Shown here: piece after piece, positions 3,272-23,066 of the stretch
Layout: every line of letters begins with the position of its first letter
Position numbering within the stretch: position 1 is the stretch's first letter
Translations under genes and position numbers: made by a program
The notes under the pieces: generated by a model
What the model was told of the DNA's origin: nothing
Databases searched by the model: none
Seen by the model: only the letters and a program-made list of their open reading frames with translations
Source: Patescibacteria group bacterium
GTDB taxonomy: Bacteria; Patescibacteriota; Patescibacteriia; UBA1558; UBA10009
Reading direction: 5' to 3'
Assembly: GCA_041662565.1 (NCBI GenBank)
Contig: JBAZSE010000001.1
Location: 65,084 to 129,083 of the forward strand
DNA: 64,000 bases

Positions 3272-5602
3272 ATGGGTAAATTTACCAAACTGTTTTTAGT
3301 AGCCATCGCTATTTGTGGTGGTTTTTTGTTGGCCAATAGTGCTAGCGCGGCCACCTTTTTAAATGTCTCTCTTAATGAGAGCCAACCGGAAAGCAGAGAT
3401 TTAAATCTTGATTATATTGGTCTTGCTCAGGAAAATGTTCCTGTTTGGGTAGCTAATATTAATTTAACTAACGCGGATAACAGCGCCGAAGCATTAAATG
3501 TCAGCACTTTATACATTAGTACCGCTACCGGCAGCAGAATCATTTTTAGCAAAATGACTTTAGTAGATGGTATTGATAATGAAAATCACGAGGGATTTGC
3601 CACTACCGAAATTAAAAGTGGCTACAAAGCTTTGGTTTTTAGAAATTTAAATATTACTTTAGGAGTTGGTGAAACTAAAGTTTTACAGGTTTGGGGTACT
3701 TTAAATGGCTCTTTGAGAAATAATTACATTAATCAATTGGGTGTTACTACCAGGGGAAGTGTAATTGCCCGCGGAGTTAATGATAGGCGTTATTCCGTTG
3801 TTTCCGGGAATTTTCCGGTGTTAGGCAACATTTTTAGATTAATTATGCCTCGTTCTTACGGCACTGTTAATTACGCTGGTAATGAGGCCGTGGTTTCTGT
3901 TTCGCGAGGAACAACTAATGTTGAGCTCGCGCATTTTAATTTTGTTAATGAAGAAAGAAGCCAGCAGGACATGAATTTAACCAGCGTTAAAGTCACTAAT
4001 TACGGCACGGCTAACAGTAATCGCACGCTTTCCAGTGTTGGCCTTTATGATGGAGATCGTTTATTAGTCAGAGGTACTCTTTCCGGTAGAACTTATACTT
4101 TTAAAAATTTTCATCATTTTATTCAACGCGGTGGTAACCATGTGTTAACGGTTAAAGGCAATATTAGCAGAAATGCCGTTGTGGATAGCACTATTATTAT
4201 GGGTATTAATGCCGTGGCTGATTTAAAAGGCGTAAATGCCAATCCCAATGGTTTTGATTTGGCAACTATTTTTAGTGGCAATTTTCCTGTTAGAGCCAAT
4301 GAATTTAGAATTTTGGGTGAGGGAAGGCTGACAGTGCAGGCGGAAAGCAATCCGGCTACAACCAATGTGGTGGCCCGTGCTGATGACGTGCCGATGCTTA
4401 ATTTAAGATTTACTGCCACTAATTCTGCTTTTAGAATCAATCATTTGCGTATTTCTCAAACTAATGATGATCTTTTTGATCGCTCTATTGCCAGCGTTAG
4501 AATTACTTACCAAAATGAAGCCGGAGAAAATTCTTTGGTTGGCACTGCTTTAAATAATGGTAATGCCGACCTTAATTTAAGTTTTGATCCGGCTTATGTT
4601 GCGGCTAATAGTTCCGCGATAATCAGGGTTTTTGCCGATTTAAACCCAATTAATCCAGATTGGGGCGCTTATACCGGTGATGCCATTCAGCTTACGTTTA
4701 AAGTTAATCAGGGTTTTGAAGCCAGAGCCGTTGGTGTTAATCTCCCGGCCATTCAAAACGTGGGCGAGCGTGATATCCCTGGAAATGATATGATTGTCCA
4801 TGGCTCTGTGCCAACTATTACAGCTGATGATGCCCAGGGTAATTTAGCTAACGGATCCGTAGATTTATACCGTTTTAGAGTTACTGCGCCGGAAGACGGG
4901 ACGGATTTGTCCTTAAAAAAATTGTCATTTAAGGTTAACTTGAATGATAGCGTTACTTTGCAAAACGCCACCGCAACCACCTTGATGTTAAGGAACTTTG
5001 AAATTTTAGAAGGCGATTCCTATAACAATGCGTCCGCTCTTACTCAAGCTGATAGGGGTAATGATTCATATCAAATATATAATGGCTACGGTGCTACCAA
5101 CACTATTGCCACGGGTTTTGCCGGGTGGCCAGTGGGCGGCAAGCTGAGCCATTCCAGTGGAACCATAGCTGCCTTTTTTCCGCCTAATGTCAACACCAGG
5201 GATGTAGTTGTGGTCTTTAATGACGATAGATTGATTAGGCAAGGCCAAAGCAAGTATTATATTTTAAGAGCTAGGGCTATGAATGTGGATACCGGTAATG
5301 GTAGTAATGATTCCATCAGCACCTATATGTTTGATGGCGATCAGAATGTTTCTGCTTATAAAGGCCTTGAGGCCAGCTGTGATTTCAATAATAACCGGGC
5401 CGCTGGTATAGGTAGTAAATACTGTTTAAGTAGTGATGGCCGAGCCAACGATACAGCAGCTTACTTTATTTGGTCCGATACTACAGGCACCGAAGGTAAT
5501 TATCAACACCAAGATATTAATGCCGATAGTAATAATAATTCCCAGGATTGGTTTAACGGTTGGAAAATTAAAACTTTAAACGTTCAAAGAACTTTGAACT
5601 AA
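3272..5602 (+). CDS. large secreted protein, paralog of 1216..3114
   Basis: The signal peptide is MGKFTKLFLVAIAICGGFLLANSASA. The conserved C-terminal module is shared with the upstream paralog (LYRFRVTAPEDGTDLSLKKLSFKVNLNDSV, YFIWSDTTGTEGN, DWFNGWKIKTLNVQRTLN). A hairpin plus T-run follows at ~5620-5657. Confidence 0.6.
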   Translation: MGKFTKLFLVAIAICGGFLLANSASAATFLNVSLNESQPESRDLNLDYIGLAQENVPVWVANINLTNADNSAEALNVSTLYISTATGSRIIFSKMTLVDGIDNENHEGFATTEIKSGYKALVFRNLNITLGVGETKVLQVWGTLNGSLRNNYINQLGVTTRGSVIARGVNDRRYSVVSGNFPVLGNIFRLIMPRSYGTVNYAGNEAVVSVSRGTTNVELAHFNFVNEERSQQDMNLTSVKVTNYGTANSNRTLSSVGLYDGDRLLVRGTLSGRTYTFKNFHHFIQRGGNHVLTVKGNISRNAVVDSTIIMGINAVADLKGVNANPNGFDLATIFSGNFPVRANEFRILGEGRLTVQAESNPATTNVVARADDVPMLNLRFTATNSAFRINHLRISQTNDDLFDRSIASVRITYQNEAGENSLVGTALNNGNADLNLSFDPAYVAANSSAIIRVFADLNPINPDWGAYTGDAIQLTFKVNQGFEARAVGVNLPAIQNVGERDIPGNDMIVHGSVPTITADDAQGNLANGSVDLYRFRVTAPEDGTDLSLKKLSFKVNLNDSVTLQNATATTLMLRNFEILEGDSYNNASALTQADRGNDSYQIYNGYGATNTIATGFAGWPVGGKLSHSSGTIAAFFPPNVNTRDVVVVFNDDRLIRQGQSKYYILRARAMNVDTGNGSNDSISTYMFDGDQNVSAYKGLEASCDFNNNRAAGIGSKYCLSSDGRANDTAAYFIWSDTTGTEGNYQHQDINADSNNNSQDWFNGWKIKTLNVQRTLN

Positions 5603-10209: not shown

Positions 10210-11154
10210 ATGGCTAATAAAATAAACGATCTCTTAACTCAATTCCTGGAATATCTGGAAATTGAAAAAAACCGCTCGCAGCTAACCGTGCGGAATTATG
10301 ATTTTTATTTAAAAAGATTTTTAGAATTTGCCAAAGTAGAAAATCCCCAAGCCATTGATTTGGAAAAAGTTAGGCAATTCCGCCTGTATCTAAATCGTTT
10401 AGTAGTTAAAGGCAAGACCTTAAAAAAATCTACCCAAAATTACCACATCATTGCGTTGAGAAGTTTTTTAAAGTTTTTAGCTAGGCGAGATATTAAAACA
10501 CTGGCGCCGGAAAAATTGGAATTGGCTAAAATTGGTGAACGGTCGGTGGATTTTTTGGATGGTGGCGATTTGGAAAGAATTTTAGAGATGCCTTTAAAAG
10601 GCACGGCGCCCCAAATTATCAAGTTGCGGGATAAAGCCATTTTGGAACTATTGTTTTCTACGGGTTTGCGTGTTTCGGAACTGGCAAATTTAAAAATAAG
10701 TTCCATCAATTTAAAACGGGATGAGTTTACGGTACGAGGTAAGGGCGATAAGCCCCGAGTGGTTTTTATTTCCAATCAGGCCAGGCACGCGCTTAAGGAA
10801 TATTTAGAAGCCAGGCATGATTTAGAAAGTTGGATGTTTATCGGCCATGATAGGGCGGCTAATCAAAGAACTAAAGATAAAGAGAAAAAAGATCATCCAT
10901 TAACATCTCGTTCCGTTCAGCGCTTGGTTGAAAAATATTCAACTGCGGCTGGCTTAACCAAGCATGTTACGCCCCATACTTTAAGGCATTCTTACGCTAC
11001 CGATTTATTAATGAACGGCGCGGATATCAGAAGTGTTCAGGCCATGCTGGGGCATGCTTCTATTACCACCACGCAAATTTATACTCATATTACTAATAAG
11101 CAGTTGCGGGAAGTACATCAGGCGTTTCATGGTAAAACCAGGGGAGATAATTAA
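10210..11154 (+). CDS. tyrosine site-specific recombinase, XerC/XerD-like
   Basis: It has an N-terminal SAM-like core-binding domain. The C-terminal catalytic motifs are HTLRHSYATDLL and LGHASITTTQIYTHI (R..H..R..Y). There is a ~25-aa Lys-rich insertion before the catalytic domain. Confidence 0.85.
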   Translation: MANKINDLLTQFLEYLEIEKNRSQLTVRNYDFYLKRFLEFAKVENPQAIDLEKVRQFRLYLNRLVVKGKTLKKSTQNYHIIALRSFLKFLARRDIKTLAPEKLELAKIGERSVDFLDGGDLERILEMPLKGTAPQIIKLRDKAILELLFSTGLRVSELANLKISSINLKRDEFTVRGKGDKPRVVFISNQARHALKEYLEARHDLESWMFIGHDRAANQRTKDKEKKDHPLTSRSVQRLVEKYSTAAGLTKHVTPHTLRHSYATDLLMNGADIRSVQAMLGHASITTTQIYTHITNKQLREVHQAFHGKTRGDN

Positions 11155-11286: not shown

Positions 11287-11685
11287 TCAGGCCGTGGCTG
11301 ATCGTTGTTGTAAGCAGCTCCATAAGAGACGTAGTCCCTGGCTGGTACTTTGCCACATGCCATCTGGTATTGGATACCAGTCAATCGGCTGCATGCCATG
11401 GTATATGGTAAAAAATCCTAGAGGCAGTCCAGCCAAAGCCTCAATTGGCAATCTCGCGTACGTTTGTAGATAGAGTATCCCCCCGGGATGTTGAGCAACG
11501 AATTCGGCGATTGCTTTCGCGTCGCCACACTCCTCTTCAGTGACGTATTGGATGTTTACCTGGCCGTAGATCTGCTCCAGTAGCGCCGCCTGAATTGGTG
11601 GCACCTTATTGCCTAGCCAGAAGACGTTCTTACCGGCAGACATAGCCATCCTCCGTGCGGAAGTAGTGCGATTTAGCGCGGTCAC
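11287..11685 (-). CDS. hypothetical protein in a GC-rich segment; possible 3' part of a frameshifted gene
   Basis: By eye it is ~50-55% GC against ~35-45% for its neighbours. It overlaps the upstream ORF by ~56 nt in another frame. Confidence 0.3.
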   Translation of the reverse strand: MTALNRTTSARRMAMSAGKNVFWLGNKVPPIQAALLEQIYGQVNIQYVTEEECGDAKAIAEFVAQHPGGILYLQTYARLPIEALAGLPLGFFTIYHGMQPIDWYPIPDGMWQSTSQGLRLLWSCLQQRSATA

Positions 11686-12358
11686 AGTGGGCTTTGCTCA
11701 TAGCCGCTAAGGCCGCTTTGTTAAACCGTACCTGCGATGGGGGTAGGTCTAACTTTTTAGGGAGTACTTTGCCTATGCACTCTCCATGAGTTTGCGGTTT
11801 AGATCCGATGAACTCTTTTTCGCACAGATCACACTGCCAAGTAGGAACCACCTTGATCGTAGGCCACCTAAAAGAGTTGACCCAGGCGTTTTGTCCCTCT
11901 TGCACAATGGCGTGTTCGACGAAGGTCAAGAGTGACCCCTGAGCTCTTACTAAGCCGACTGAATTAACAGCCTCAAAGTGGGCGTGAATACCTTGGGTCT
12001 CATCTTCTGTTGTAACAGCACAAGAGGGCTTAAGAGCTTTACCGTGGCTGTCACAGACGATTACTACGCCTTTCCCATTTTTGATCCCATCGATTTCTTG
12101 GGCGTAGAAGAAGAGTTCATCACACCTTCTATTGAAGGGTAATGGGAAGAGAGGGGCATCTCCCTTCCAATATTGCGGTTGGATCAGGGCGAATGATAAG
12201 ATCACATCATCATTTTCCAGCCGATCCTTTTTTGGCTTAAAGCCTTGTCTTTCGAGCTTTTCTATCCATGGCAGAATGTCCTCTCTGCCGCTGAATTTAA
12301 GACGGACGCCTACACTTGGAATTTCCATTGAATTTCCTTGTTTTTGTTGATGCCGCAT
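11630..12358 (-). CDS. hypothetical protein in a GC-rich segment (Cys-pair motifs CDLCEK..HGEC, AHCDR)
   Basis: ORF of 242 aa with elevated GC and no recognisable family. Confidence 0.4.
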   Translation of the reverse strand: MRHQQKQGNSMEIPSVGVRLKFSGREDILPWIEKLERQGFKPKKDRLENDDVILSFALIQPQYWKGDAPLFPLPFNRRCDELFFYAQEIDGIKNGKGVVIVCDSHGKALKPSCAVTTEDETQGIHAHFEAVNSVGLVRAQGSLLTFVEHAIVQEGQNAWVNSFRWPTIKVVPTWQCDLCEKEFIGSKPQTHGECIGKVLPKKLDLPPSQVRFNKAALAAMSKAHCDRAKSHYFRTEDGYVCR

Positions 12359-12617: not shown

Positions 12618-12692
12618 GCCCCGGTAGTTCAACGGATAGAATAGGAGACTTCTAATCTCTAGATCCAAGTTCGATTCTTGGCCGGGGCACCA
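12618..12692 (+). tRNA. tRNA-Arg (anticodon TCT)
   Basis: 75-nt cloverleaf with acceptor GCCCCGG/CCGGGGC, anticodon loop CTTCTAA and T-loop TTCGATT. CCA is encoded. Confidence 0.85.
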
Positions 12693-12761: not shown

Positions 12762-13037
12762 ATGTATTACGTTTACGTTTTACAGAGTTTTAAGGATTCT
12801 TCATTATATACCGGTTTTACTGTTAATTTACAACGTCGATTTTTTGAACATAATAACGGTTTAAGTCAGGCGACTAAATATTTAAGGCCATGGAAATTAA
12901 TTTATTATGAAGCTTATTGTTTAGAAAACGATGCCAAAGGTAGAGAGGTATTTTTAAAAAGCGGTTCGGGTAAAAAATATTTGGATAAACAATTGAAAAA
13001 TTATTTTAATTCTAAGCCAAGAAAGAAAATTGTTTAA
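12762..13037 (+). CDS. GIY-YIG nuclease superfamily protein (small stand-alone)
   Basis: Motifs are YYVYVLQS..LYTGFTVNLQRRFFEHN. Confidence 0.8.
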   Translation: MYYVYVLQSFKDSSLYTGFTVNLQRRFFEHNNGLSQATKYLRPWKLIYYEAYCLENDAKGREVFLKSGSGKKYLDKQLKNYFNSKPRKKIV

Positions 13038-13114: not shown

Positions 13115-13190
13115 GGTGCCTATGGTGTAATGGTTAACACAGCGGTTTGTGGTACCGCTAATATGAGTTCAATTCTCATTAGGCACCCCA
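13115..13190 (+). tRNA. tRNA-His (anticodon GTG) with encoded G-1
   Basis: G-1 plus GGTGCCT..AGGCACC acceptor, anticodon loop TTGTGGT and T-loop TTCAATT. The 3' terminus reads ..CACCCCA. An IR hairpin (CCACGT..GTTTCAC/GTGAAAC..ACGTGG) abuts the 5' end. Confidence 0.8.
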
Positions 13191-13335
13191 TATGTAAGAA
13201 CAGCCCTAAAAAGGCTGTTTTTGCTTTTAGGTTAGCGAAGAAACGGAGTTTTCAGAGAGTTGGTTTTTAGCCCTACTCTTAGTAGGTATAGTTGGTAAAG
13301 TATTAATATTTTGTGTAATATTAGGAAAGAATAAT
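13183..13335 (+). repeat. repeat A copy 1 (overlaps tRNA-His 3' end; carries terminator hairpin plus extended -10)
   Basis: ..GGCACCCCATATGTAAGAACAGCCCTAAAAAGGCTGTTTTTGCTTTTA..TTTTGTGTAATATTAGG.. Confidence 0.7.
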
Positions 13336-14295
13336 ATGCAGAAAAAAATAAAAATAACCAGACCAAAGCCTTTTGAATGGGTAGGAGCTAAATTTAATAT
13401 AATGGGTAAAGTCCCAAAAGCTTGGCTAGAAACAAGTTTTGGAATTCAGACCAGCCTTTATTTTGATCTAATTGATATTAAAGGAAGGACTGTTATGGGC
13501 ACCTCAATTAATTTTGAAAAGATTAAAAAGAATGGATGGTTTTCAATATTTGATGATAGAATATATTTTTCATCAACCTTTCAGTTTTCAGGACTTAGCG
13601 TTGGATGGATTAAGGAATCGCAAGGTAGAATGACTATTAAATTAAGCGGCCAGAATGCACAAGAGCAATGCATTTATATCCCAGTTATTGTAAAACAATT
13701 TGAACCTAAAGAAGGTGTTGATTCTGAAATTAAAAATAAGCATGGAAAAATAGGTGTAATGATAAAGCAATATGAAGAGGATTTAAAAATTTATTATCAG
13801 GAACTAGAGAAAATTGAAAAAAGACGTTTAAAGAAAAATGAAATCTCCGAGGAAGATTGGCGAAAGGGGTTTCAATATATACATAATTGGGATGTTATAG
13901 GGGGAGTCTTGGAAATTTTAGACCAAGCTGAAAGTTTTAATAAGGAATATCCATTTATTCAAGAGGATTTAGAAGAAAGACAGTTGACTGAAAAATACAA
14001 AGAAGCACTTGAGTGGCAAGGTCCTTTATTACATGGCTTAATTTCCAAAATGGATGGCTTTGAGTTTAGAATATACAGTAATGATCATGGTCAGCATTTT
14101 CACGTTATTCATAACTCTAAAGGTATTAATGCTCGTTTTTCTTTCCCTGAAATTAAACTTATAGATTATAAGTCTACTAAGACTAGCATAAATCGTAGGG
14201 AACAGGATAGGATAATTGATTTTTTTAGAAATCCAGAAATATTTAAAAAGTTAGAAATGGAGTTTCAAAGAAGGGATCAATTTAAAAACATTTAA
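13336..14295 (+). CDS. hypothetical protein with C-terminal YSNDHxxHFHV motif (DUF4160-like)
   Basis: ORF of 319 aa and very AT-rich. The C-terminal motif FRIYSNDHGQHFHVIH resembles the (Y/F)xNDHxPPHxH signature I recall for DUF4160. Confidence 0.45.
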   Translation: MQKKIKITRPKPFEWVGAKFNIMGKVPKAWLETSFGIQTSLYFDLIDIKGRTVMGTSINFEKIKKNGWFSIFDDRIYFSSTFQFSGLSVGWIKESQGRMTIKLSGQNAQEQCIYIPVIVKQFEPKEGVDSEIKNKHGKIGVMIKQYEEDLKIYYQELEKIEKRRLKKNEISEEDWRKGFQYIHNWDVIGGVLEILDQAESFNKEYPFIQEDLEERQLTEKYKEALEWQGPLLHGLISKMDGFEFRIYSNDHGQHFHVIHNSKGINARFSFPEIKLIDYKSTKTSINRREQDRIIDFFRNPEIFKKLEMEFQRRDQFKNI

Positions 14296-14310
14296 TGATT
14301 AATAAATTTT

Positions 14311-14410
14311 TAATCCTTCTAGCCACTTAAATTCAATCCTTTCCCGATAAACTTTAATATCCCGCATCATAGAACTGACAAGCTTACCTTTACCCAAGCT
14401 GTCAGCTTTT
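14311..14410 (+). repeat. repeat B copy 1 (hairpin plus T-run; terminator-like)
   Basis: AATCCTTCT..TTCCCGATAAACTTTAAT..GAACTGACAAGCTT..AAGCTGTCAGCTTTTTT, homologous to 16326-16440. Confidence 0.6.
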
Positions 14411-14444
14411 TTGACTTATTTTTCATAAGTTGTATATTTAATCT

Positions 14445-15308
14445 ATGAAGCAGGGTCAAAAATTAAGTATTATTTTAATTGTCGCTATTTTTTTAGGCAG
14501 TTTTTTAATTGTTAGTAATGTTTTTGCTCACCGTTCTGGCTGCCATCGTTGGCATTCCTGTCCATCAGACACCGGTTCATATACATGTGGTGATGCTGGC
14601 CATCCGTGTTTATATCCAACTTACCCTGCAAACGGCGGAGTAATTTATCCCCCCAGTGGTTACTATAAGGATTGCTATGACTGTCCATTAAAAAAGGTGC
14701 CAGACAATGCCTATACTACAGGAATCAGCTACTCTTGCATTAGTGGTTATAAAAAAGTAGGAGAAGCATGTGAAAAAGTTATTGCACCCGCAAATGCTTA
14801 CGTTTCAGGCTCTAATTGGTATTGCAATTTAGGATACAGAGAAGTTGGTAATTCTTGTGAAAAAGTAATCGCCCCAGCTAATGCTTATGTTTCAGGCTCT
14901 AATTGGTATTGCAAGAGTGGGTATAGAGAGGTGGGTAATACATGTCAAAAAGTTATTGCACCCGCAAATGCTTATGTTAGTGGTGCCTATTGGTACTGCA
15001 ACAATGGTTATAAGGAAGTTGGTAATAGTTGCCAAAAAGTAATCGCCCCAGCTAATGCTTATGTTTCAGGCTCTAATTGGTATTGTAAAAGTGGGTATAG
15101 AGAGGTGGGTAATACATGTCAAAAAGTAATCGCCCCACCCAACGCATATGTGTCCGGGGCGTACTGGTATTGTAACAACGGATATAGAGAAGTTGGTAAT
15201 TCTTGTGAAAAAGTTATTGCACCCGCAAATGCTTACGTTTCAGGAGCTAATTGGTATTGTAAGAGTGGGTATAGAGAAGTTGGCAATTCTTGTCAGCCAA
15301 TACAGTAA
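14445..15308 (+). CDS. secreted Cys-rich protein built of ~7 tandem 29-aa repeats
   Basis: Signal peptide, then the unit C(E/Q)KVIAPANAYVSG(S/A)(N/Y)WYC(K/N)(S/N)GY(R/K)EVGN(S/T) repeated. The 87-bp units are near-identical at the DNA level over ~14667-15299. Confidence 0.6.
   Translation: MKQGQKLSIILIVAIFLGSFLIVSNVFAHRSGCHRWHSCPSDTGSYTCGDAGHPCLYPTYPANGGVIYPPSGYYKDCYDCPLKKVPDNAYTTGISYSCISGYKKVGEACEKVIAPANAYVSGSNWYCNLGYREVGNSCEKVIAPANAYVSGSNWYCKSGYREVGNTCQKVIAPANAYVSGAYWYCNNGYKEVGNSCQKVIAPANAYVSGSNWYCKSGYREVGNTCQKVIAPPNAYVSGAYWYCNNGYREVGNSCEKVIAPANAYVSGANWYCKSGYREVGNSCQPIQ
14667..15299 (+). repeat. coding tandem repeat, 87-bp unit x ~7
   Basis: The near-identical nucleotide units lie inside the 14445..15308 CDS. 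Confidence 0.7.
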
Positions 15309-15330
15309 CATTTTATGAAAAAAAATAACC

Positions 15331-15510
15331 AACGATATCGATAAGCCACCCCATATGTAAGAACAGCCCTAAAAAGGCTGTTTTTGCTTTTATCTTAGGC
15401 AAGAAATGGAGTTTTCAGATAGTTGGTTTTCAGCACCACCTTTAGTAGGTATAGCTGGTAAACTTTAAGTATTTTGTGTAAGATTAGGGAAGAAATATTA
15501 ATTAAAATTT
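15331..15510 (+). repeat. repeat A copy 2
   Basis: ..ATATCGATAAGCCACCCCATATGTAAGAACAGCCCTAAAAAGGCTGTTTTTGCTTTTATCTTAGGCAAGAAATGGAGTTTTCAGATAGTTGG..TTTTGTGTAAGATTAGGG.. Confidence 0.75.
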
Positions 15511-16344
15511 ATGGATCTACCTTTCTCTTTAAGGTTTTTAAAAAAGATTGAATTATTTCAAGTTTTAAAAAAATTAGATAAGCAATTTAAAAGACAGCTG
15601 GAAATAAATAATGGCACGGTGCCATTATGGATGGGCGAGAAAAAATTTTTGTACTGGAGTTATTTACAGCATAAACATTTAGGTAGTCCTATAATGATTG
15701 ATGCTATTAGGAGCAAGAAATCTTATTTTTTGAAGCAATTTGAACATCGCGGTGCCGAGATGGAAGAAAAAAGAAATAAATTATTAAAAATTAACTCTGA
15801 TAGATTAGAAAAAAATTATAGTAAAATTTTAAAAACCCTTAATCTATCACATGAATATATTGAAATTCAGGCTGCTAATATTGGAAATATGAAAACCAGT
15901 TTTGGTTTTACGGCAAAAGAAATTGATGCGTTAGGTGTAAGACCAATTTTTGGTAACCTTGTTAGTAGAGGGTATGCTGTTTATTATCCCAATACGCAAG
16001 AAGAATTTAATCATTTTTCGGGGGGCAATAATAATAGTGTAGGGGAGGCTATATATAAAGACGTAGTCTCTGATCAATCAAATTGCGAAGGCATTATTAT
16101 CACTTCAGATGGCTTGTTAATGGGCGAACTAATTAGTGAACTGTACAGTATTAGAATGAGTATAAAAAAATCTTTATATAATAAATTGACTGGCTCTAAA
16201 TGTGAATTAATGATAAATAATTTTTGGTGGGGGCTTTATCAGTCATTAATTATTATAAGTTACTTAGCTTTATTTTTAGTTTGTTATTTAATTATTAGAG
16301 AATTTATTCAGGAATTATATTACTTAATCCTTCCCTCCATTTAA
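15511..16344 (+). CDS. hypothetical protein with C-terminal TM segment
   Basis: ORF of 277 aa and AT-rich, with a hydrophobic C-terminal helix. Its last codons lie inside repeat B copy 2. Confidence 0.4.
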   Translation: MDLPFSLRFLKKIELFQVLKKLDKQFKRQLEINNGTVPLWMGEKKFLYWSYLQHKHLGSPIMIDAIRSKKSYFLKQFEHRGAEMEEKRNKLLKINSDRLEKNYSKILKTLNLSHEYIEIQAANIGNMKTSFGFTAKEIDALGVRPIFGNLVSRGYAVYYPNTQEEFNHFSGGNNNSVGEAIYKDVVSDQSNCEGIIITSDGLLMGELISELYSIRMSIKKSLYNKLTGSKCELMINNFWWGLYQSLIIISYLALFLVCYLIIREFIQELYYLILPSI

Positions 16345-16440
16345 ACTCAATCCTATTAAACTCAATCCTATCCCGATAAACTTTAATCTCCTGCATCATG
16401 GAGCTGACAAGTTTGCCCTTGCCTAAGCCGTCAGATTTTT
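16326..16440 (+). repeat. repeat B copy 2 (with internal 13-bp duplication AAACTCAATCCTA)
   Basis: AATCCTTCCCTCC..ATCCCGATAAACTTTAATCTCCTGCATCATGGAGCTGACAAG..GTCAGATTTTT. Confidence 0.6.
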
Positions 16441-16568
16441 ACATAATATTTACATATATATTTCATTGTGATATAATAAATATGCTGAATTTAAAGGGGT
16501 ATATGGATGTATTATTACATAATATTTAATGTATTATTACATATTAAAAGGACAATTTTTACAAATAT

Positions 16569-17723
16569 ATGGAGCCAAAATTCATAGATTTCCCATTGAG
16601 GTTAATTGAGCCATCTTTTAATTCAAGTTTAGTAGATACTATAATTGAACTTGAAAGATTAAGATCTCCTAGGAGAATTAAAAGTAGGGTTAATTCTCGA
16701 GTATTTTTGCAATTAAAGGAAATTTTTCATACTTTAGAAAGTTTAGGATCTGTCCGTATAGAAGGAAATAATACAACTCTTTCGGATATTGTTGAAAAAA
16801 CGATTGACGGTACAATTCAGAAATCTCAGGAAGAAAATATTAAAGAATTTAAAAATAATCAAAAGGCTTTAAACTTTATTGAAGAAAATATTAAAGAAGG
16901 AACTATAATAACTAAAAGTTTTATATCTGAATTCCAGCGTTTAACAGTAGCAGATCTTGACCCATCCAAAGAGGGAGATTATGTGCCCGGACAATACAGA
17001 AATAAAGAAGTTAAAATCAAAAATTCATTGCATAAACCACCTTTACCCATTAAAGTTCCTGAGCTTATGGATGAATTATTATTGTTCATTAATAATCAAA
17101 GAGATCAAAAATATAAATTATTATCTACAGCGATAGTTCATCATCGTTTTGCTTGGATACACCCATTTAACAATGGCAATGGAAGAACGGTTAGGTTGTT
17201 AACTTATGCAATGTTGATGAGCCAAGGGTTTTCAGTTAACCGTCTTTTAAACCCGACAGCCGTTTTTTGCAATGATAGAAATATATATTATCAAATGCTA
17301 GCTGAGGCAGATAAAGGCACAGATCAGGGATTATTGAAATGGAGTGAATACGTATTGAATAATTTATTAGTAGAGATTAGAAAAATTGATAAATTATTGG
17401 ATTATGATTATTTAATACCAGAAATATTATTACCCACGCTTGATTATTCTTACGAAAGAAAAAATATTAACACGGAAGAATATTTGGTTTTAAAACTGGC
17501 AGTTCAACGCCAGGAAGTTAAAGCTGGCGATATTAATGAAGTTTTGAAAAAAAAGCATCATACTCAAGTTTCTTCAGTTATAAAAAAATTAAAACAAGAA
17601 GGTCTTTTAGTAGAAGCTCCGGGCAAAGTAAGGACTTATGTTATTTGTTTTAATAGTAATCATCTGTTGAGAGGAATAATTAATTTTTTAAGGAAAGGTG
17701 ATTTTATTGGTACTTTTGAATAA
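16569..17723 (+). CDS. Fic/Doc family protein (putative AMPylase-type toxin or effector)
   Basis: The Fic motif is HPFNNGNGRTVRLL, i.e. HxFx(D/N)GNGRxxR. The C-terminal region looks like a winged helix. Confidence 0.8.
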   Translation: MEPKFIDFPLRLIEPSFNSSLVDTIIELERLRSPRRIKSRVNSRVFLQLKEIFHTLESLGSVRIEGNNTTLSDIVEKTIDGTIQKSQEENIKEFKNNQKALNFIEENIKEGTIITKSFISEFQRLTVADLDPSKEGDYVPGQYRNKEVKIKNSLHKPPLPIKVPELMDELLLFINNQRDQKYKLLSTAIVHHRFAWIHPFNNGNGRTVRLLTYAMLMSQGFSVNRLLNPTAVFCNDRNIYYQMLAEADKGTDQGLLKWSEYVLNNLLVEIRKIDKLLDYDYLIPEILLPTLDYSYERKNINTEEYLVLKLAVQRQEVKAGDINEVLKKKHHTQVSSVIKKLKQEGLLVEAPGKVRTYVICFNSNHLLRGIINFLRKGDFIGTFE

Positions 17724-17730
17724 AAGTTTG

Positions 17731-17914
17731 CTAACAATATCGATAAGCCACCCCATATGTAAGAACAGCCCTAAAAAGGCTGTTTTTGCTTTTATCTTAG
17801 GCAAGAAATGGAGTTTTCACAGAGTTGGTTTTCAGCACCACCCTTAGTGGGTATAGCTGGTTAAATTTTAATATTTTGTGTAAGATAAGAGAGTTATTTA
17901 ATAAAAAATATAGC
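17731..17914 (+). repeat. repeat A copy 3
   Basis: It is near-identical to copy 2 (..ATATCGATAAGCCACCCCATATGTAAGAACAGCCC..TTTTGTGTAAGATAAGAG..) and ends just before the ATPase start. Confidence 0.75.
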
Positions 17915-20509
17915 ATGCTGACTAAAATAGAAAATATAAAATTTTGGCAAATATCTGCGCCAGAAACAGCTAAGGTGTTAGAAACAAATATTAAGGATGG
18001 ACTATCTACTCAAGAAGTAAAAGAACGTCTTAATGTATTTGGCAAAAATACTTTTGAAACATCAAAAAAGACCAGTAAGATTAAAATTTTCTTTAGCCAG
18101 TTAAAAAGTCCCTTAATCCTTGTTCTTATTATTGCCAGTATTGTTACTCTTGTTATTTCTCATTACCGAGATGCTATTTTTATTTTTATTGCCGTCATGG
18201 TAAATTCAGTTTTAGGTTTTTGGCAAGAAAACAAGGCCGAAAACGCTCTGGCTCAGCTTAAAACGTATCTTAAACAAAGAGCTCGGGTAATACGAGAAGG
18301 TAAAGAAAGGGAAATACACGCCGAAGAAATTGTGCCGGGGGATATTATCAGGCTTGCTCAAGGCGATCGTGTGCCGGCAGATGCCAGGGTTATTTTTGTT
18401 AATGATTTTCAGATCGATGAATCTATTTTAACAGGTGAATCTTTGCCGGTTGCGAAATCAACGGATAGCGTGCCGGGATCCGCAAATATCGCTGATCAAA
18501 GTTCAATGATCTTTGCCGGCACTCTGGTTACACAAGGCGTTTGCGCGGCTATAGTTTGCCGTACTGATGCCTATACTGAATTGGGAAAAATTGCCTCTCT
18601 TATTGAAAAATCCGGAAACGAAAAAACGCCTTTACAAAAAGCTATCATCAAATTTAGCGCTTATCTTAGCGTTTTACTTGGGTTGCTTACGCTCGCGGTT
18701 TTTATTATAGGTATTATTTCTGGTAAACCTTGGCTGGAAATGTTTTTAACGGCCGTAGCCATTGCTGTTTCGGCTATACCGGAAGGGTTGCCCATTTCTA
18801 TGACGGTTGTTTTGGCAATTGGAGTAGAAAGAATGGCTAAACGCAAAGGAGTGGTTCGTAAGCTTATCGCGGCCGAAACATTAGGCGGAACAACTGTTAT
18901 TTTAACCGATAAAACCGGTACTTTAACTATGGCTAAAATGGTGCTTTCGCAAATTATTCCTTTTAAATCAACCAAAGAAATAGTACTTAACCACGCTCTT
19001 GCTAATGCTAGCGTGGTAGTTGAAAATCCAGAAGATAAACCGGAGTTATGGCGAATGAATGGTAGAATGATGGAAACAGTTTTGGTGCAATCGGCAGCGC
19101 TTCGAGGCATTCCATTTGCGGAGCTCACGGATAAATCCCAGGTGTTGCAAACCATACCGTTTAACGCGGTTCAAAAATTTTCCGTTTCTCTTATAAAAGA
19201 AGAAGCTAGTCATCTGATGGTTTTATTTGGCGCGCCTGATATTTTATTGGCTCAATCATCTTTAAACGAAAATGATAAAAAAATAATTTTTGAGAAAATT
19301 GATTTATTGGCTTTGTCGGGCGAACGGGTTTTAGGTTTGGCTACTAAAACAATTAAACATACGGAAAATTTTTCTTTGGCTAAAGATTTAGATTTTTCCG
19401 ATTTATCTTTTGACGGGCTGATAACTTTTAGAGACCCAATCAGGCCGGGGATTAAACGCGTTATTGATCAGGTAAAGCAAGCTGGAATAAAAACAGTAAT
19501 AATGACCGGCGATCATCAGGGAACGGCCGTGGCCGTGGCTAAAGAGGTGGGTTTAAGCGTAACCGACGTGTCTGTTCTTGATGCTGCCGAGCTAGCGACT
19601 TTGTCTGACCAATCTTTACGAGAGCGACTTTCGTCTTTAACAGTAATATCCCGAGTTACGCCTTTTGACAAAATAAGGATAGTAAAGGCATTTCAGGAAT
19701 TAGGTGAAATTGTCGCTATGACCGGAGATGGAGTTAATGATGCGCCCAGCATTAAACAGGCTAATGTGGGTATTGCCATGGGGTCAGGGACAGAGGTCTC
19801 TCAAAGCGTGGCCGATTTAGTGCTTTTGGATGATAATTTTGAAACAATAGTTGCGGCTATTGAAGAAGGCCGGCAAATATTTGGTAATATACGGAAAGTT
19901 TTGGTTTATTTGCTTTCAAGCGTTGCTGACGAGCTTATTTTAATTGGCGGGTCGATACTTGCAGGCGTACCATTACCTTTAAACGCTTTGCAAATTTTGT
20001 GGGTCAATTTTTTTACTGATAGTTTTCCGGCTATTGCCTTTGCTTTCGAAAGCGATAAAAATTATCTTTTGCAAAAACCATCAGAGAAAGGTATGGTATT
20101 ATTTAATCCACTTATGAAATTTTTAATTTTAGTCATCGGCGTTTCTACCAGTGCTTTGCTTTTTGCTATTTATTTAATTTTATTACGAATGGGTTTTGAT
20201 CCGGCTCTTGTGACAACATTTATTTTTGCGGCTTTTGGCACTTATACGCTTATACTGGCTTTTTCGGTTAAAAGTTTGGATAAAAGTATTTTTTCATATT
20301 CCTTATTCTCAAATAAATATCTTACTGGCGCGATTGCCCTGGGTTTAATTCTTATGGCAGGGGCAATTTATGTTCCTGCCTTGCAAACGCTTTTTAATAC
20401 CAGGGCTTTGCCTTTTGGCTGGGTGGTTGGCATTGCTTTAGTGAGTATTCTTAATCTTATATTAATAGAAGCGGCCAAGTGGATCTTTAGGCGATTTAAG
20501 AAAAAATAA
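17915..20509 (+). CDS. cation-transporting P-type ATPase (P2-type, Ca2+/Mg2+-like)
   Basis: Motifs DKTGTLT, TGDHQGTAVAVA and MTGDGVNDAPSIKQANVGIAMG, with 10 predicted TM helices. I place the start at the ATG at 17915 (M31 of the track ORF), because the upstream 30 codons lie in repeat A. Confidence 0.9.
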   Translation: MLTKIENIKFWQISAPETAKVLETNIKDGLSTQEVKERLNVFGKNTFETSKKTSKIKIFFSQLKSPLILVLIIASIVTLVISHYRDAIFIFIAVMVNSVLGFWQENKAENALAQLKTYLKQRARVIREGKEREIHAEEIVPGDIIRLAQGDRVPADARVIFVNDFQIDESILTGESLPVAKSTDSVPGSANIADQSSMIFAGTLVTQGVCAAIVCRTDAYTELGKIASLIEKSGNEKTPLQKAIIKFSAYLSVLLGLLTLAVFIIGIISGKPWLEMFLTAVAIAVSAIPEGLPISMTVVLAIGVERMAKRKGVVRKLIAAETLGGTTVILTDKTGTLTMAKMVLSQIIPFKSTKEIVLNHALANASVVVENPEDKPELWRMNGRMMETVLVQSAALRGIPFAELTDKSQVLQTIPFNAVQKFSVSLIKEEASHLMVLFGAPDILLAQSSLNENDKKIIFEKIDLLALSGERVLGLATKTIKHTENFSLAKDLDFSDLSFDGLITFRDPIRPGIKRVIDQVKQAGIKTVIMTGDHQGTAVAVAKEVGLSVTDVSVLDAAELATLSDQSLRERLSSLTVISRVTPFDKIRIVKAFQELGEIVAMTGDGVNDAPSIKQANVGIAMGSGTEVSQSVADLVLLDDNFETIVAAIEEGRQIFGNIRKVLVYLLSSVADELILIGGSILAGVPLPLNALQILWVNFFTDSFPAIAFAFESDKNYLLQKPSEKGMVLFNPLMKFLILVIGVSTSALLFAIYLILLRMGFDPALVTTFIFAAFGTYTLILAFSVKSLDKSIFSYSLFSNKYLTGAIALGLILMAGAIYVPALQTLFNTRALPFGWVVGIALVSILNLILIEAAKWIFRRFKKK

Positions 20510-20577: not shown

Positions 20578-20847
20578 GTGTCAAAAATTATTAAACTTGG
20601 TTATTTCATGATTATCAAAATTTTAGGTTCAGGTTGCCCTAGTTGCCAAAAGCTTGAGCAAAATGTTAAAAAGGCCATTGAGGAATTAGACCTTAATAAT
20701 ATTCAGATAGAAAAAGTGACTGATTACGAAAAAATGTCAGCTTATGGAATTATGAGCGTGCCGGCTTTAGTAATTGATGAACAAGTTAAAGCCTATGGGC
20801 AAGTTTTAACAGTTGAACAGATTAAAAAATTACTTGGCTATGTTTAA
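20578..20847 (+). CDS. thioredoxin-fold small protein (redox-active disulfide, CPSC)
   Basis: MIIKILGSGCPSCQKLEQNVKKA.. matches the TM0979-like small thioredoxin family. An alternative start is the ATG at 20608. Confidence 0.7.
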   Translation: MSKIIKLGYFMIIKILGSGCPSCQKLEQNVKKAIEELDLNNIQIEKVTDYEKMSAYGIMSVPALVIDEQVKAYGQVLTVEQIKKLLGYV

Positions 20848-21790
20848 AGTTTTTAGTGATTATTTACTTTATAATCTATTTAATTTGCAGGCTAATTCAA
20901 AATTAGCCGATGTTATTGAATTTTTTATTTATGATACGATCAAAATTTTTATTTTGTTAGCGGTGATTATTTTTATCGTGTCCGTGATCCGTTCATTTTT
21001 GCCTCCGGAAAAAATCCGTTTTATTCTTTCTCATAAAAATAAATACATAGGCAATGTTATTGCTTCTTTGCTTGGTATTATTACGCCTTTTTGTTCCTGC
21101 TCCGCCATTCCGTTATTTTTAGGATTTGTGCAAGCTGGCGTACCATTAGGAACAACCTTTTCTTTCCTTGTGGCTTCGCCAATGATCAACGAAGTGGCTT
21201 TGGTTTTGCTTTTAGGCATGTTTGGTTGGAAAATTGCCTTAGCCTATATTTTTAGTGGATTGGTTATTGCTATCTTGTCCGGTATCATCATTGGAAAAAT
21301 GAAAGTTGAGAATTTAGTTGAACCTTTTGTCTATCAGAATTCCATTAATGCTAAAATCAACCTGCCAAATATGGTTTGGCCGGATCGGTTAATTTACGCT
21401 AAAAATTATACTTGGGATATTATTAAAAAAGTTTGGCCGTATATCATTATCGGCATTGCTCTTGGTGCGTGGATACACGGCTATGTGCCGACTGACTTTT
21501 TAGCCAAGTATGCTGGCGCTGACAAATGGTACGCTGTGCCATTCGCTGTCCTTATCGGTATTCCTCTTTACTCTAACGCCGCCGGTATTATTCCTTTAGT
21601 GGGAGCGTTGGCTGAAAAAGGCGTGGCCATGGGCACCACTTTAGCTTTTATGATGGCTGTTACCGCCCTATCTTTACCAGAGTTTATGATTTTAAAGAGG
21701 GTGATGAAAATCAAGCTTATTTTAATTTTTGCTGGCATTGTTGGGGTGGGAATTATCTTTACGGGCTACTTGTTTAATTGGATGTTGTAG
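20813..21790 (+). CDS. permease, DUF318/ArsP-like family
   Basis: Multi-TM protein with a CSCSAIP motif. The pairing with an upstream small thioredoxin is typical for this family. An alternative start at 20840 would overlap the upstream stop (ATGTTTAA). Confidence 0.7.
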   Translation: MNRLKNYLAMFKVFSDYLLYNLFNLQANSKLADVIEFFIYDTIKIFILLAVIIFIVSVIRSFLPPEKIRFILSHKNKYIGNVIASLLGIITPFCSCSAIPLFLGFVQAGVPLGTTFSFLVASPMINEVALVLLLGMFGWKIALAYIFSGLVIAILSGIIIGKMKVENLVEPFVYQNSINAKINLPNMVWPDRLIYAKNYTWDIIKKVWPYIIIGIALGAWIHGYVPTDFLAKYAGADKWYAVPFAVLIGIPLYSNAAGIIPLVGALAEKGVAMGTTLAFMMAVTALSLPEFMILKRVMKIKLILIFAGIVGVGIIFTGYLFNWML

Positions 21791-21912: not shown

Positions 21913-22004
21913 ATCGCCCTTGACAATCAGCTTAAAATTTTGTTAAGTTCAGATTGTTTATTGTAAATTCACACACCCCAAAACCCTATTACTATGAGGT
22001 TGCA

Positions 22005-23066
22005 ATGACAGAGGTTCTGATTGTAATTAACCCTGGTTCCACTTCGACGAAATTCGCCGTATGGAGCCGGGAATATTGCGTTTCGGAGCAGGTTGTCCGC
22101 CATGAGGCGAGTCAGCTGGCTCCGCGCGCGGTGGATCAGTTTGACTATCGGCGTGAGCTGATAGATCAGGCGCTTGAGCCGTTGCTCAAGGACTCGGAAG
22201 TGATTGGCGTGGTTGGCCGAGGCGGCTTGCTTAAGCCATTGGCGGGAGGTACTTACCTGGTCAATCAGGCAATGCTTGGCGATCTTAATCTGCCAACGAC
22301 TGGCAACCACGCCTCCAACCTGGGAGCCATACTTGCCTATCACTATGCCCAACGTTTCAGGGTGGATGCCTTTGTGGTGGATCCGGTCACGGTGGACGAG
22401 TTTCTGCCGTTTTCCCGACCAAGTGGCGTTGTTTGGTTCGAGCGAAAAAGCCGTTCTCACGCGCTGAACATTAAATACTCGGTCAACCGAGCGGCTCATG
22501 AGATCGACAAACCGCTCAGCAGAACCCGTTTCGTGGTGGCGCATCTCGGCGGTGGAACTTCCATTGCGGCTGTTCAATTCGGCCGAATCATTGATGTTAA
22601 TGATGCCCTGGCTGGTATGGGGCCTTATTCGCCGGAACGCGCCGGAGCTTTGCCAATCGGCCCGTTGGTCAAGTACGTTCTTGAATCGGGTGCTACCTAT
22701 GAGCAGTTGATTCACGAATTGACCAAGAGATCGGGATTGATGGCTTACTGCGGCACCTCGGATGTACGGGAAGTTATGGTCCAAATTCGAAACGGCAACG
22801 CACAAGCCGCGCTTGCCTTTGGGGCCATGATTTATCAGGATGCCAAAGAAATCGGTGCCATGGCTGTGGCACTGCAAGGCCAACTTGATGCCGTAATCAT
22901 TACCGGCGGGTTGGCGCATTCTCACGATGTCATCCAAACTCTACGGCCGTATATCGAACATCTTGGCCCGATCATCGTTTATCCGGGCGAAGGCGAGCTG
23001 GAAGCTCTGGCCGCCGGGGCTTTCCGCGTGCTTGATGGCGTGGAACCGCCCATAATTTACGTCTAA
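22005..23066 (+). CDS. buk: butyrate kinase / short-chain acyl kinase (ASKHA family)
   Basis: Motifs VLIVINPGSTSTKFAVW, HLGGGTSIAAV and ITGGLAHS. By eye GC is distinctly higher (~55-58%) than the window average. The start is placed at M18 because of a GAGG RBS. The antisense ORF 21969..22937 is rejected. Confidence 0.85.
   Translation: MTEVLIVINPGSTSTKFAVWSREYCVSEQVVRHEASQLAPRAVDQFDYRRELIDQALEPLLKDSEVIGVVGRGGLLKPLAGGTYLVNQAMLGDLNLPTTGNHASNLGAILAYHYAQRFRVDAFVVDPVTVDEFLPFSRPSGVVWFERKSRSHALNIKYSVNRAAHEIDKPLSRTRFVVAHLGGGTSIAAVQFGRIIDVNDALAGMGPYSPERAGALPIGPLVKYVLESGATYEQLIHELTKRSGLMAYCGTSDVREVMVQIRNGNAQAALAFGAMIYQDAKEIGAMAVALQGQLDAVIITGGLAHSHDVIQTLRPYIEHLGPIIVYPGEGELEALAAGAFRVLDGVEPPIIYV

Follow-up and report, generated by a model that had tools for sequence, protein, structure and literature searches.

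What has placed four unrelated, AT-rich genes next to a tRNA-His gene in a patescibacterial genome, and could they have arrived as mobile cassettes? The question is raised by a stretch of 64,000 nucleotides from a Patescibacteria group bacterium (assembly GCA_041662565.1, contig JBAZSE010000001.1, positions 65,084 to 129,083), hereafter the window, in which three copies of a long direct repeat (A1, A2 and A3) delimit two short units between tRNA-His(GTG) and a gene for a P-type ATPase. Each unit holds two open reading frames (ORFs). A sequence-only reading of the window had described this segment as an integron-like cassette array built by serial site-specific integration at a tRNA attachment site. 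Our analysis establishes that the tRNA-His-anchored cassette islet is real and well delimited, and on balance we favour its origin by serial insertion of short foreign units at the 3′ end of tRNA-His, spanning 13.19-17.91 kb of the window. To our knowledge, Patescibacteria, or the candidate phyla radiation (CPR), have tiny genomes, and the mobile elements recognised in them so far are few. For 125 aquifer genomes, one survey reported genomic islands by the hundred and attributed up to 13% of genome length to horizontal transfer, with no mention of tRNAs, integrases, integrons or Xer (PMC12455944).

The islet is delimited by the A repeats (Table 1), whose pairwise identities of 91.6% (A2/A3, 178 nt), 87.7% (A1/A2, 155 nt) and 87.9% (A1/A3, 141 nt) bear out the earlier estimate of about 90%. 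A core of 46 nt, CACCCCATATGTAAGAACAGCCCTAAAAAGGCTGTTTTTGCTTTTA, is identical in all three copies, where shuffled sequences predict no such match. In A1 the core begins at position 13184, that is, with the last 7 nt of tRNA-His (CAC, the discriminator C and CCA). The terminator scan found an identical 12-bp hairpin followed by a run of Ts in every copy, as had been read by eye. The extended -10 element reported alongside it stood less well: the motif TGTGTAAKAT does occur about 100 nt past each hairpin, but it is missing from the promoter-scan list, and we regard it as a weak candidate for an extended -10 from which the next gene could be transcribed. A second repeat family, B, which had also been noticed, is present as one copy between the two genes of each unit; B1 and B2 are 82% identical, and directly 3′ of each copy there is a sigma-70-like promoter of good quality, the one behind B2 (16449-16477) lying upstream of the start codon of a Fic protein gene. 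Neither A nor B has further copies within the 64-kb window, and nhmmer profiles of the two repeats matched this locus alone when run on the window and on every locus fetched. The only metagenome-contig match of a 20-mer from the A core fell in an unrelated coding region without a tRNA and was judged to be chance.

A2 and A3 have in common an additional left arm, AACRATATCGATAAGC, that is absent from A1. When the arms of A2, A3 and B were compared with 62 tRNA-His 3′ halves, using shuffles as control, the A2 arm agreed at 17 of 21 positions with the canonical Patescibacteria tRNA-His 3′ half CGATTCCCATTAGCCACCCCA, and only 1 of 300 shuffles did as well. The A3 arm agreed at 12 of 13 positions (p~0.05) and the 5′ end of B1 at 14 of 15 positions with the T-stem/acceptor segment (p~0.01), whereas the B2 arm gave no significant match to the tRNA-His 3′ halves. 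The junctions thus carry decayed partial copies of tRNA-His, the characteristic trace of integration into the 3′ end of a tRNA gene. Because these arms fit the canonical tRNA-His better than the AT-rich tRNA-His of the window, the comparison suggests that the units evolved in hosts with a canonical tRNA-His gene. A2 and A3 had each been said to re-create about 9 nt of the tRNA end; exact identity with the resident tRNA extends over only 7 nt.

The composition of the islet and its surroundings points the same way as its borders. Islet GC is 0.320 against 0.397 for the window, and GC at third codon positions (GC3) is 0.21-0.28 in ORF1-ORF4 against 0.398+/-0.074 in 44 other ORFs (z from -1.6 to -2.6), in line with the AT-richness noticed by eye. 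The cargo is four unrelated genes, foreign in composition. To place the locus among its relatives we used 80 related Patescibacteria genomes or loci, retrieved with the Xer-type recombinase encoded upstream of the tRNAs as query. The block pnp-NYN-rpsO-xer-tRNA-Arg-tRNA-His is kept in most of them, and the order xer, tRNA-Arg, tRNA-His is held in most loci with variable spacings. Genes found 3′ of tRNA-His in the window are syntenic in 0 of the 80, so that tRNA-His marks a synteny break.

Table 1. Positions of the repeats, cargo genes and neighbouring features in the window
Feature	Position	Strand	Remarks
tRNA-His(GTG)	13116-13190	+	CCA encoded; ARAGORN, Rfam tRNA (64 bits); putative attachment site at the 3′ end
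Repeat A1	~13184-13335	+	7-nt tRNA tail, terminator hairpin 13194-13224, ~100-nt spacer, TGTGTAATAT, then ORF1 start
ORF1, 319 aa, CPR-restricted family	13336-14295	+	N-terminal beta-sandwich, helical middle, small DUF4160-like C-terminus
Repeat B1	14310-14411	+	tRNA-His T-stem/acceptor-like 5′ part AATCCTTCTAGCCAC, hairpin and T-run, then TTGACT-16-TATATT promoter
ORF2, 287 aa	14445-15308	+	hydrophobic N-terminus MKQGQKLSIILIVAIFLGSFLIVSNVFA, signal-peptide-like by eye, then Cys-rich 29-aa repeats
Repeat A2	~15328-15510	+	decayed partial tRNA-His 15333-15353, exact core 15347-15392, terminator 15357-15387, TGTGTAAGAT
ORF3, 277 aa, orphan-like	15511-16344	+	hydrophobic C-terminal helix
Repeat B2	16324-16440	+	one TTAAACTCAATCCT unit more than B1; hairpin and T-run, then TTTACA-17-TATAAT promoter with TG
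ORF4, Fic/DOC protein, SoFic-like	16569-17723	+	HPFNNGNGR motif; Pfam Fic 1.4e-17
Repeat A3	~17729-17914	+	decayed partial tRNA-His, exact core 17749-17794, terminator 17759-17789, TGTGTAAGAT, then ATPase start
P-type (Ca2+-type) ATPase	17915-20509	+	distal edge of the islet; Pfam
Xer-type tyrosine recombinase	10210-11154	+	Pfam Phage_integrase 1.3e-44; neighbour only, outside the islet
tRNA-Arg(TCT)	12618-12692	+	ARAGORN, Rfam; conserved partner of tRNA-His
GIY-YIG nuclease ORF, small, free-standing	12762-13037	+	between tRNA-Arg and tRNA-His; Pfam GIY-YIG 6.3e-13

These observations are consistent with a scheme in which the attachment site would overlap the 3′ end of tRNA-His and short foreign DNA units would have been inserted there successively. 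Each insertion would leave a junction A made up of a decayed partial tRNA-His 3′ half, the core with its tRNA tail and hairpin, and an arm of about 110 nt, whose weak extended -10 could drive the following gene. Movement would be possible only through a recombinase encoded elsewhere that acts on A, or through RecA recombination between A copies. Since the units carry no recombinase, they would be the equivalent of decayed or cis-mobilizable integrative elements standing in tandem. The B repeats are probably older, further decayed junctions of the same kind, and if so the array may be made of four single-gene cassettes. In the earlier proposal of serial site-specific integration, the part concerning att-type scars is supported by the tRNA-like arms, the foreign cargo, the synteny break and the recurrence of the architecture elsewhere (see below), while the site-specificity of the insertions, the order of events and any present-day mobility are inferred.

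Several results weigh against serial insertion at the tRNA. No recombinase lies in or beside the units, and none was identified that might act on them in trans. The resident tRNA-His agrees with the repeat exactly over 7 nt and at 15 of 21 positions across its 3′ half, and the bulk of repeat A lies 3′ of the tRNA, an unusual arrangement where integrases target tRNAs. The left arms of A2 and A3 carry identical "decay" changes, so they are copies of each other or of one element arm, not independent remnants; nor do these arms significantly match the 29-nt arms found in other genomes (nhmmer E=7). The 20-mer of the A core found no match in genome contigs or viral contigs. As for the proteins, the ATPase has a 100%-identical cluster representative from a Patescibacteria group bacterium, and six more proteins of the window, including ORF1, ORF3, Fic and the GIY-YIG and Xer-type proteins, are matched exactly in metagenome-assembled genomes of that name. 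Strain variants were sought through exact-protein look-ups with ORF3 and with the ATPase (in the gene-caller's 894-aa start), and no polymorphism of presence, absence or order was seen among the retrievable assemblies, all of which are identical or end at the repeat.

The same assemblies bear on two further explanations. According to one, the repeats were mis-joined in a metagenome-assembled genome, and short-read unitigs (L087, L103) do break exactly at the repeat core. Nevertheless, the arrangement is the same in two long contigs of different records, of 326 kb and 809 kb, the latter being 100% identical over 20.8 kb, and the three A copies differ at many positions and are therefore not collapsed or duplicated reads; we regard such an artefact as highly improbable. 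According to the other, the islet is immobile: A would be a locally duplicated terminator-promoter module copied during illegitimate insertion, and its overlap with the tRNA tail would be incidental. The uniformity of the assemblies fits this, as does the fact that every A copy holds a terminator and stops just before a start codon. It does not account for the partial-tRNA left arms that A2 and A3 have and A1 lacks, for the compositionally foreign cargo, or for the recurrence of the tRNA-anchored architecture in other genomes with unrelated repeats, and we consider it improbable.

This recurrence emerged when each locus was queried with its own tRNA tail and downstream sequence: tRNA-anchored arrays were found in other Patescibacteria, with unrelated repeat sequences. 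Locus L079 contains eight consecutive one-ORF intervals of 0.45-3.4 kb each, with junctions that read ...CCACCCCA and, across the boundary, TTTTACAT..., then a hairpin; this hairpin occurs 5 times 3′ of the tRNA and 0 times in the 12 kb upstream. Between one and four junctions were present in each of L010, L006, L040, L035, L020, L080, L012, L065 and L077. Under one uniform criterion, 6 of 57 tRNA-His loci were positive, compared with 0 of 66 tRNA-Arg(TCT) loci. The regular expression GTTC..A-N-[GC]ACCCCA matched true tRNAs at a spacing of 24 nt and, in 7 genomes, 14 further sites that are not tRNAs. Every one of these 14 has a spacing of exactly 29 nt, shares the strand of tRNA-His and lies 0.5-9.4 kb 3′ of it. 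Junction types common to different genomes (L006 and L010) are flanked by unrelated cassettes. Among the miscellaneous cargo of these arrays are a methyltransferase, an APH-type kinase, a cold-shock protein, a TIM-like protein, a 2′-5′ RNA ligase, an AsnB fusion, small membrane proteins and metal-resistance genes.

The layout of the window also exists at another tRNA. In L082 (6405-9104), tRNA-Gln is followed by four junction repeats of about 82 nt that bound four unrelated single ORFs. Each junction combines a tRNA-Gln fragment, longer by 5 nt behind the T-loop, with a terminator and TATAA. The array stands directly upstream of a 135-aa ORF and a P-type ATPase gene 78% identical to that of the window, its last hairpin resembles the A hairpin, and the junction arms at tRNA-His show this "+5 nt" spacing too (29 versus 24 nt). 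Conceivably, the islet is one instance of an undescribed integron-like cassette platform seated on tRNA 3′ ends, on tRNA-His in many lineages and on tRNA-Gln in at least one, although we rate this broader reading as rather unlikely. Under it, the role of attC would be played by a pseudo-tRNA 3′ half, often with the fixed +5-nt spacing after a T-loop-like GTTC, together with ACCCCA or the tRNA tail, the terminator hairpin and the -10 element, and cassettes of one or two genes would be inserted and shuffled by a chromosomal recombinase encoded elsewhere.

Homologous recombination might suffice without any site-specific enzyme. Repeat A would then be a portable homology block of about 170 nt, and units would loop out by RecA and re-insert in Campbell fashion at any A; CPR bacteria are assumed to take up DNA readily, which is a premise of this explanation. 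The homology available (88-92% identity over 141-178 nt, including the exact core of 46 nt) is far above what the core of a tyrosine recombinase site needs, no recombinase was found in any array examined, and the overlap with the resident tRNA is exact over just 7 nt. What this leaves unexplained is why the left boundaries of junctions coincide with a tRNA 3′ end or a partial tRNA in many genomes, and where the first duplication came from; moreover, many junctions elsewhere measure just 35-80 nt, which is short for efficient RecA recombination. As the sole process we find it unlikely, while for present-day gain and loss RecA recombination between the long A repeats is a serious alternative.

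The Xer-type gene 2 kb upstream had been suggested to act on the array in trans. In an integron-like platform of this kind, Xer would capture the cassettes, with the tRNA-His 3′ end as attI and the junction repeats as attC equivalents. Most of the 80 genomes do show synteny of Xer, tRNA-Arg and tRNA-His, the DNA between and behind the two tRNAs being variable; a search for tyrosine recombinases within 10 kb of Xer, run on the related loci and not on the window ORFs, turned up no second one in 79 of the 80; and L079 and L082 do have one-ORF cassettes arrayed between conserved junctions. Against this, the protein scores about 230-244 bits with the XerD, XerC and XerA models of NCBIfam and passes XerA, whereas the integron-integrase model TIGR02249 gives 142.5 bits in two fragments where the cut-off is 265. 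Its nearest homologues belong to Candidatus Komeilibacteria. By these scores it is an ordinary single Xer, and the linkage to rpsO-pnp speaks for a conserved housekeeping neighbour, not a gene of the islet. Equivalent arrays also stand behind tRNA-His and tRNA-Gln without a Xer gene nearby, and three loci found solely by a peptide-like motif in the arm carry that arm 1.4-3.4 kb 3′ of tRNA-His, in the same orientation, again with no Xer gene nearby.

Sites that such an enzyme would use were likewise not seen. Inspection of the three-copy alignment revealed no dif-like 11-6-11 or 28-31-bp site conserved among the A copies; the sole 7-6-7 dyad, in A1 (TAATATT-TTGTGT-AATATTA), is lost in A2 and A3, and cumulative GC skew climbs through the locus without the switch that a dif or terminus position would call for. 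A Xer/dif-type mechanism is not supported, because there is neither a conserved dif-like site nor a skew switch and arrays occur without Xer nearby. An attC-type pair RYYYAAC...GTTRRRY was found on neither strand of 13.0-18.1 kb. Rfam returned tRNAs only in the window, in 4 gathering-level matches, and so no integron/attC family, the presence of an attC model in Rfam being unchecked. Between the recombinase and the array lie two minus-strand ORFs, tRNA-Arg and the GIY-YIG ORF, with no attI beside intI, and each cassette gene has promoter-like and terminator-like elements of its own, unlike the cassettes of integrons, which are driven from Pc. In none of the defining features tested does the array agree with an integron in the strict sense, so the integron-like name given to it in the sequence-only reading is not supported in that sense, and neither is a specific role for Xer; a Xer-driven platform appears quite improbable to us. 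Transposons and miniature inverted-repeat transposable elements find no counterpart either, as no inverted-repeat pair flanks the units.

Serial insertion at tRNA-His has its closest parallels in elements that accrete at tRNA genes. As in tRNA-integrated elements, the direct repeats of the window include the 3′ part of the target tRNA, the core starting 7 nt inside tRNA-His. Tandem accretion of cis-mobilizable elements (CIMEs) and integrative mobilizable elements at tRNA 3′ ends leaves partial tRNAs and integrase-less remnants (Pavlovic 2004, Bellanger 2011, reviewed in PMC5704250). The islet resembles CIMEs in its direct repeats that include the tRNA end, in its tandem stacking, and in having kept attL/attR-like repeats while integration genes are absent. 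It differs in that its units measure only 2.2-2.4 kb (one or two genes), that no integrase-bearing element related to them was found, and that its repeat of about 170 nt lies mostly 3′ of the tRNA. We know of no conjugative elements in Patescibacteria host genomes. The tycheposon islands of Prochlorococcus grow next to tRNAs and contain partial tRNAs and many integrase-less remnants (bioRxiv 10.1101/2020.12.28.424599). Like the islet, they occur in streamlined genomes, grow at specific tRNA genes, have partial tRNA copies between elements and carry adaptive or defensive cargo. Tycheposons are defined, however, by tyrosine or serine recombinases and replication modules, and neither a tyrosine or large serine recombinase nor a replication module of the tycheposon type is present in 13.2-17.9 kb; in addition, the junctions of the window include a conserved terminator-promoter module, and those of other Patescibacteria bound single small ORFs. 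The tycheposon work is reportedly published as Hackl et al. in Cell in 2023.

Two other systems were compared. Chromosomal integrons, such as the Vibrio superintegron with its arrays of VCR repeats, share with the islet short, unrelated, mostly one-gene cassettes, repeats of about 60-170 nt that are similar within an array, and the apparent addition of new cassettes at one fixed end. They differ from it by IntI, by attI next to intI and by attC sites with R″/L″-L′/R′ symmetry, whereas the cassettes of the window have their own promoter and terminator and are anchored at a tRNA 3′ end. Integrative mobile elements exploiting Xer (IMEX) and pdif modules are alike in that integrase-less units lie between short recombination sites, that the proposed enzyme is a host Xer working in trans and that tandem arrays are possible; unlike them, the islet has no recognised dif-like 28-31-bp site or GC-skew switch, its repeats are direct and long, and arrays occur without an adjacent Xer gene.

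The islet thus differs from known accretion at tRNA genes in its tiny units, the lack of a related integrase element, a long repeat that lies 3′ of the tRNA and doubles as terminator and promoter, and a wider one-gene-cassette pattern in Patescibacteria. Recurrent tiny cassettes anchored at tRNAs without a local recombinase would be a concrete, searchable route of gene gain and loss in the CPR, one that would carry defence-type genes such as Fic as well as metabolic and surface genes. ACCCCA-plus-hairpin junctions and the 29-nt arm offer handles for mining thousands of metagenome-assembled genomes and could help to find the recombinase. If the units are inert scars, the finding reduces to an ordinary tRNA-linked islet.

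The four cargo genes largely match their earlier descriptions. ORF1 has no match in Pfam, NCBIfam, PHROG or PADLOC; its family comprises 57 homologues, and every member with a named source is from Patescibacteria. The DUF4160-like tail ascribed to it escapes Pfam in ORF1 itself, but three members of the family carry PF13711 (DUF4160). The AlphaFold model of ORF1 is confident (predicted local distance difference test, pLDDT, 87) and has no PDB match at E<1e-3, only generic beta-sandwich matches, all at E>=0.005. Around two ORF1 relatives (P0140 and P0137; up to 10 kb of flank) there are restriction-modification genes, a trio of helix-turn-helix, reverse transcriptase and PD-(D/E)XK genes, Fic, GIY-YIG and prophage remnants, and one of these contexts adjoins tRNA-Asn; a third relative, P0129, gave 2-4-kb contigs only. 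ORF2 has a period of 87 nt (29 aa) in about 6 copies, where seven had been counted, and its Pfam matches are spurious ones to Cys repeats. ORF3 has no family match in Pfam, NCBIfam, PHROG or PADLOC, and 78 relatives at E<=1e-3, about 9 of them full length; its single-sequence model (pLDDT 49) is too poor for structure comparison.

ORF4 matches PADLOC SoFic over its full length (3.8e-46, residues 27-357) and PHROG 5978 (5e-64). It scores only 43 bits with the NCBIfam SoFic equivalog, whose cut-off is 550, so that it is a member of the family with a putative defence role. Two direct copies of ATGTATTATTACATA at 16507-16544, 3′ of the strong promoter (16449-16477) and 5′ of the Fic start codon, may be a pair of operators regulating Fic. 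The suggestion of a defence or toxin hotspot finds support in the SoFic-like protein and in the contexts of the ORF1 relatives, but ORF2 and ORF3 have no defence signal and the cargo of other arrays is miscellaneous. None of the four ORFs resembles a recombinase in Pfam, NCBIfam or PHROG, as had been stated for both units, and in phage and plasmid collections the DNA has no match beyond the Fic motif region and one short repeat match of low identity.

In several of the arrays in other genomes, the arm to the left of the ACCCCA core reads, on the strand opposite to the tRNA, as a conserved peptide of the form WG[HR]IVE.V[RS]TAI.NLPP.S[YF]IPDY or G.VVEEVRTVF.RINDATIYIP. Such arms lie at L024:16144-16230, L040:15012-15107, L047:16701-16787, L059:17340-17411, L028:19104-19175 and 19938-20013, L077:13179-13268, L100:6991-7084, and L101:6135-6240 and 4687-4780. 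The peptide register shows a synonymous excess, with 86 synonymous and 143 non-synonymous changes versus 15 and 214 in the antisense register, and has no conserved start codon. The idea that the arm is the end of a split gene, as with Sulfolobus spindle-shaped viruses (SSV), found no support: no long protein among 5.8 billion contains it, and no Pfam family matches. Nor is there a sign of an RNA: neither strand has a consensus fold, and Rfam gives no match (nothing at E<=1 on three array loci). A junction travelling together with a shared cassette gene was looked for in L024 versus L040, where conservation is confined to the coding part. In L099 (12056-13099) and L100 (8989-10032), an IS110-family (DEDD) transposase gene lies immediately 3′ of tRNA-His, separating it from the element with the junction arm.

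The tRNA cluster itself shows other signs of change. The T arm of the AT-rich tRNA-His reads ATGAG-TTCAATT-CTCAT, and the gene differs throughout from the tRNA-His genes at L002:2288-2363 and L003:8400-8476, in the closest relatives by Xer identity (80-82%); the window tRNA-His gene may itself have been replaced. Between the Xer gene and tRNA-Arg, at 11287-12358, two overlapping minus-strand ORFs with no assigned function have a GC of 0.48-0.52 against 0.40. Since neither ORF is found at that position in the Komeilibacteria relatives L002 and L003, they look like a second, separate insertion in the tRNA cluster. GC in the region is lowest in the GIY-YIG ORF that separates tRNA-Arg from tRNA-His (0.275; GC3 0.217). 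Small free-standing GIY-YIG ORFs directly next to tRNA-Arg, tRNA-His and other tRNA genes recur in CPR genomes, at L010:11621-12112, L070:11149-11397, L073:3797-3958, L101:7252-7539, L090:1792-2070 and L093:2477-2761, and L010 has a LAGLIDADG ORF in addition; these ORFs may have mobility of the homing-endonuclease type and could co-convert neighbouring DNA.

At the distal edge, A3 stops at the ATG of the ATPase gene (17915), exactly where the islet had been read to end. That this gene is of a housekeeping type is less clear: homologues about 80% identical exist in other CPR lineages, the sole context read (P0012) lacks synteny with the window, and the ATPase was possibly itself acquired. Beyond it, a thioredoxin-like gene and an ArsP-permease gene (20578-21790) have 42-45% homologues at L065:14900-16192, where they belong to a block with direct repeats of the 3′ end of tRNA-His at its borders, so the acquired region of the window may reach beyond A3. 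An ACCCCA at 21975-21980, in the 5′ region of an acetate/butyrate kinase gene and with no hairpin after it, is probably there by chance. The kinase gene (21954-23066) is also compositionally foreign and lies near the islet, its GC of 0.54 and GC3 of 0.57 being the maximum of the window.

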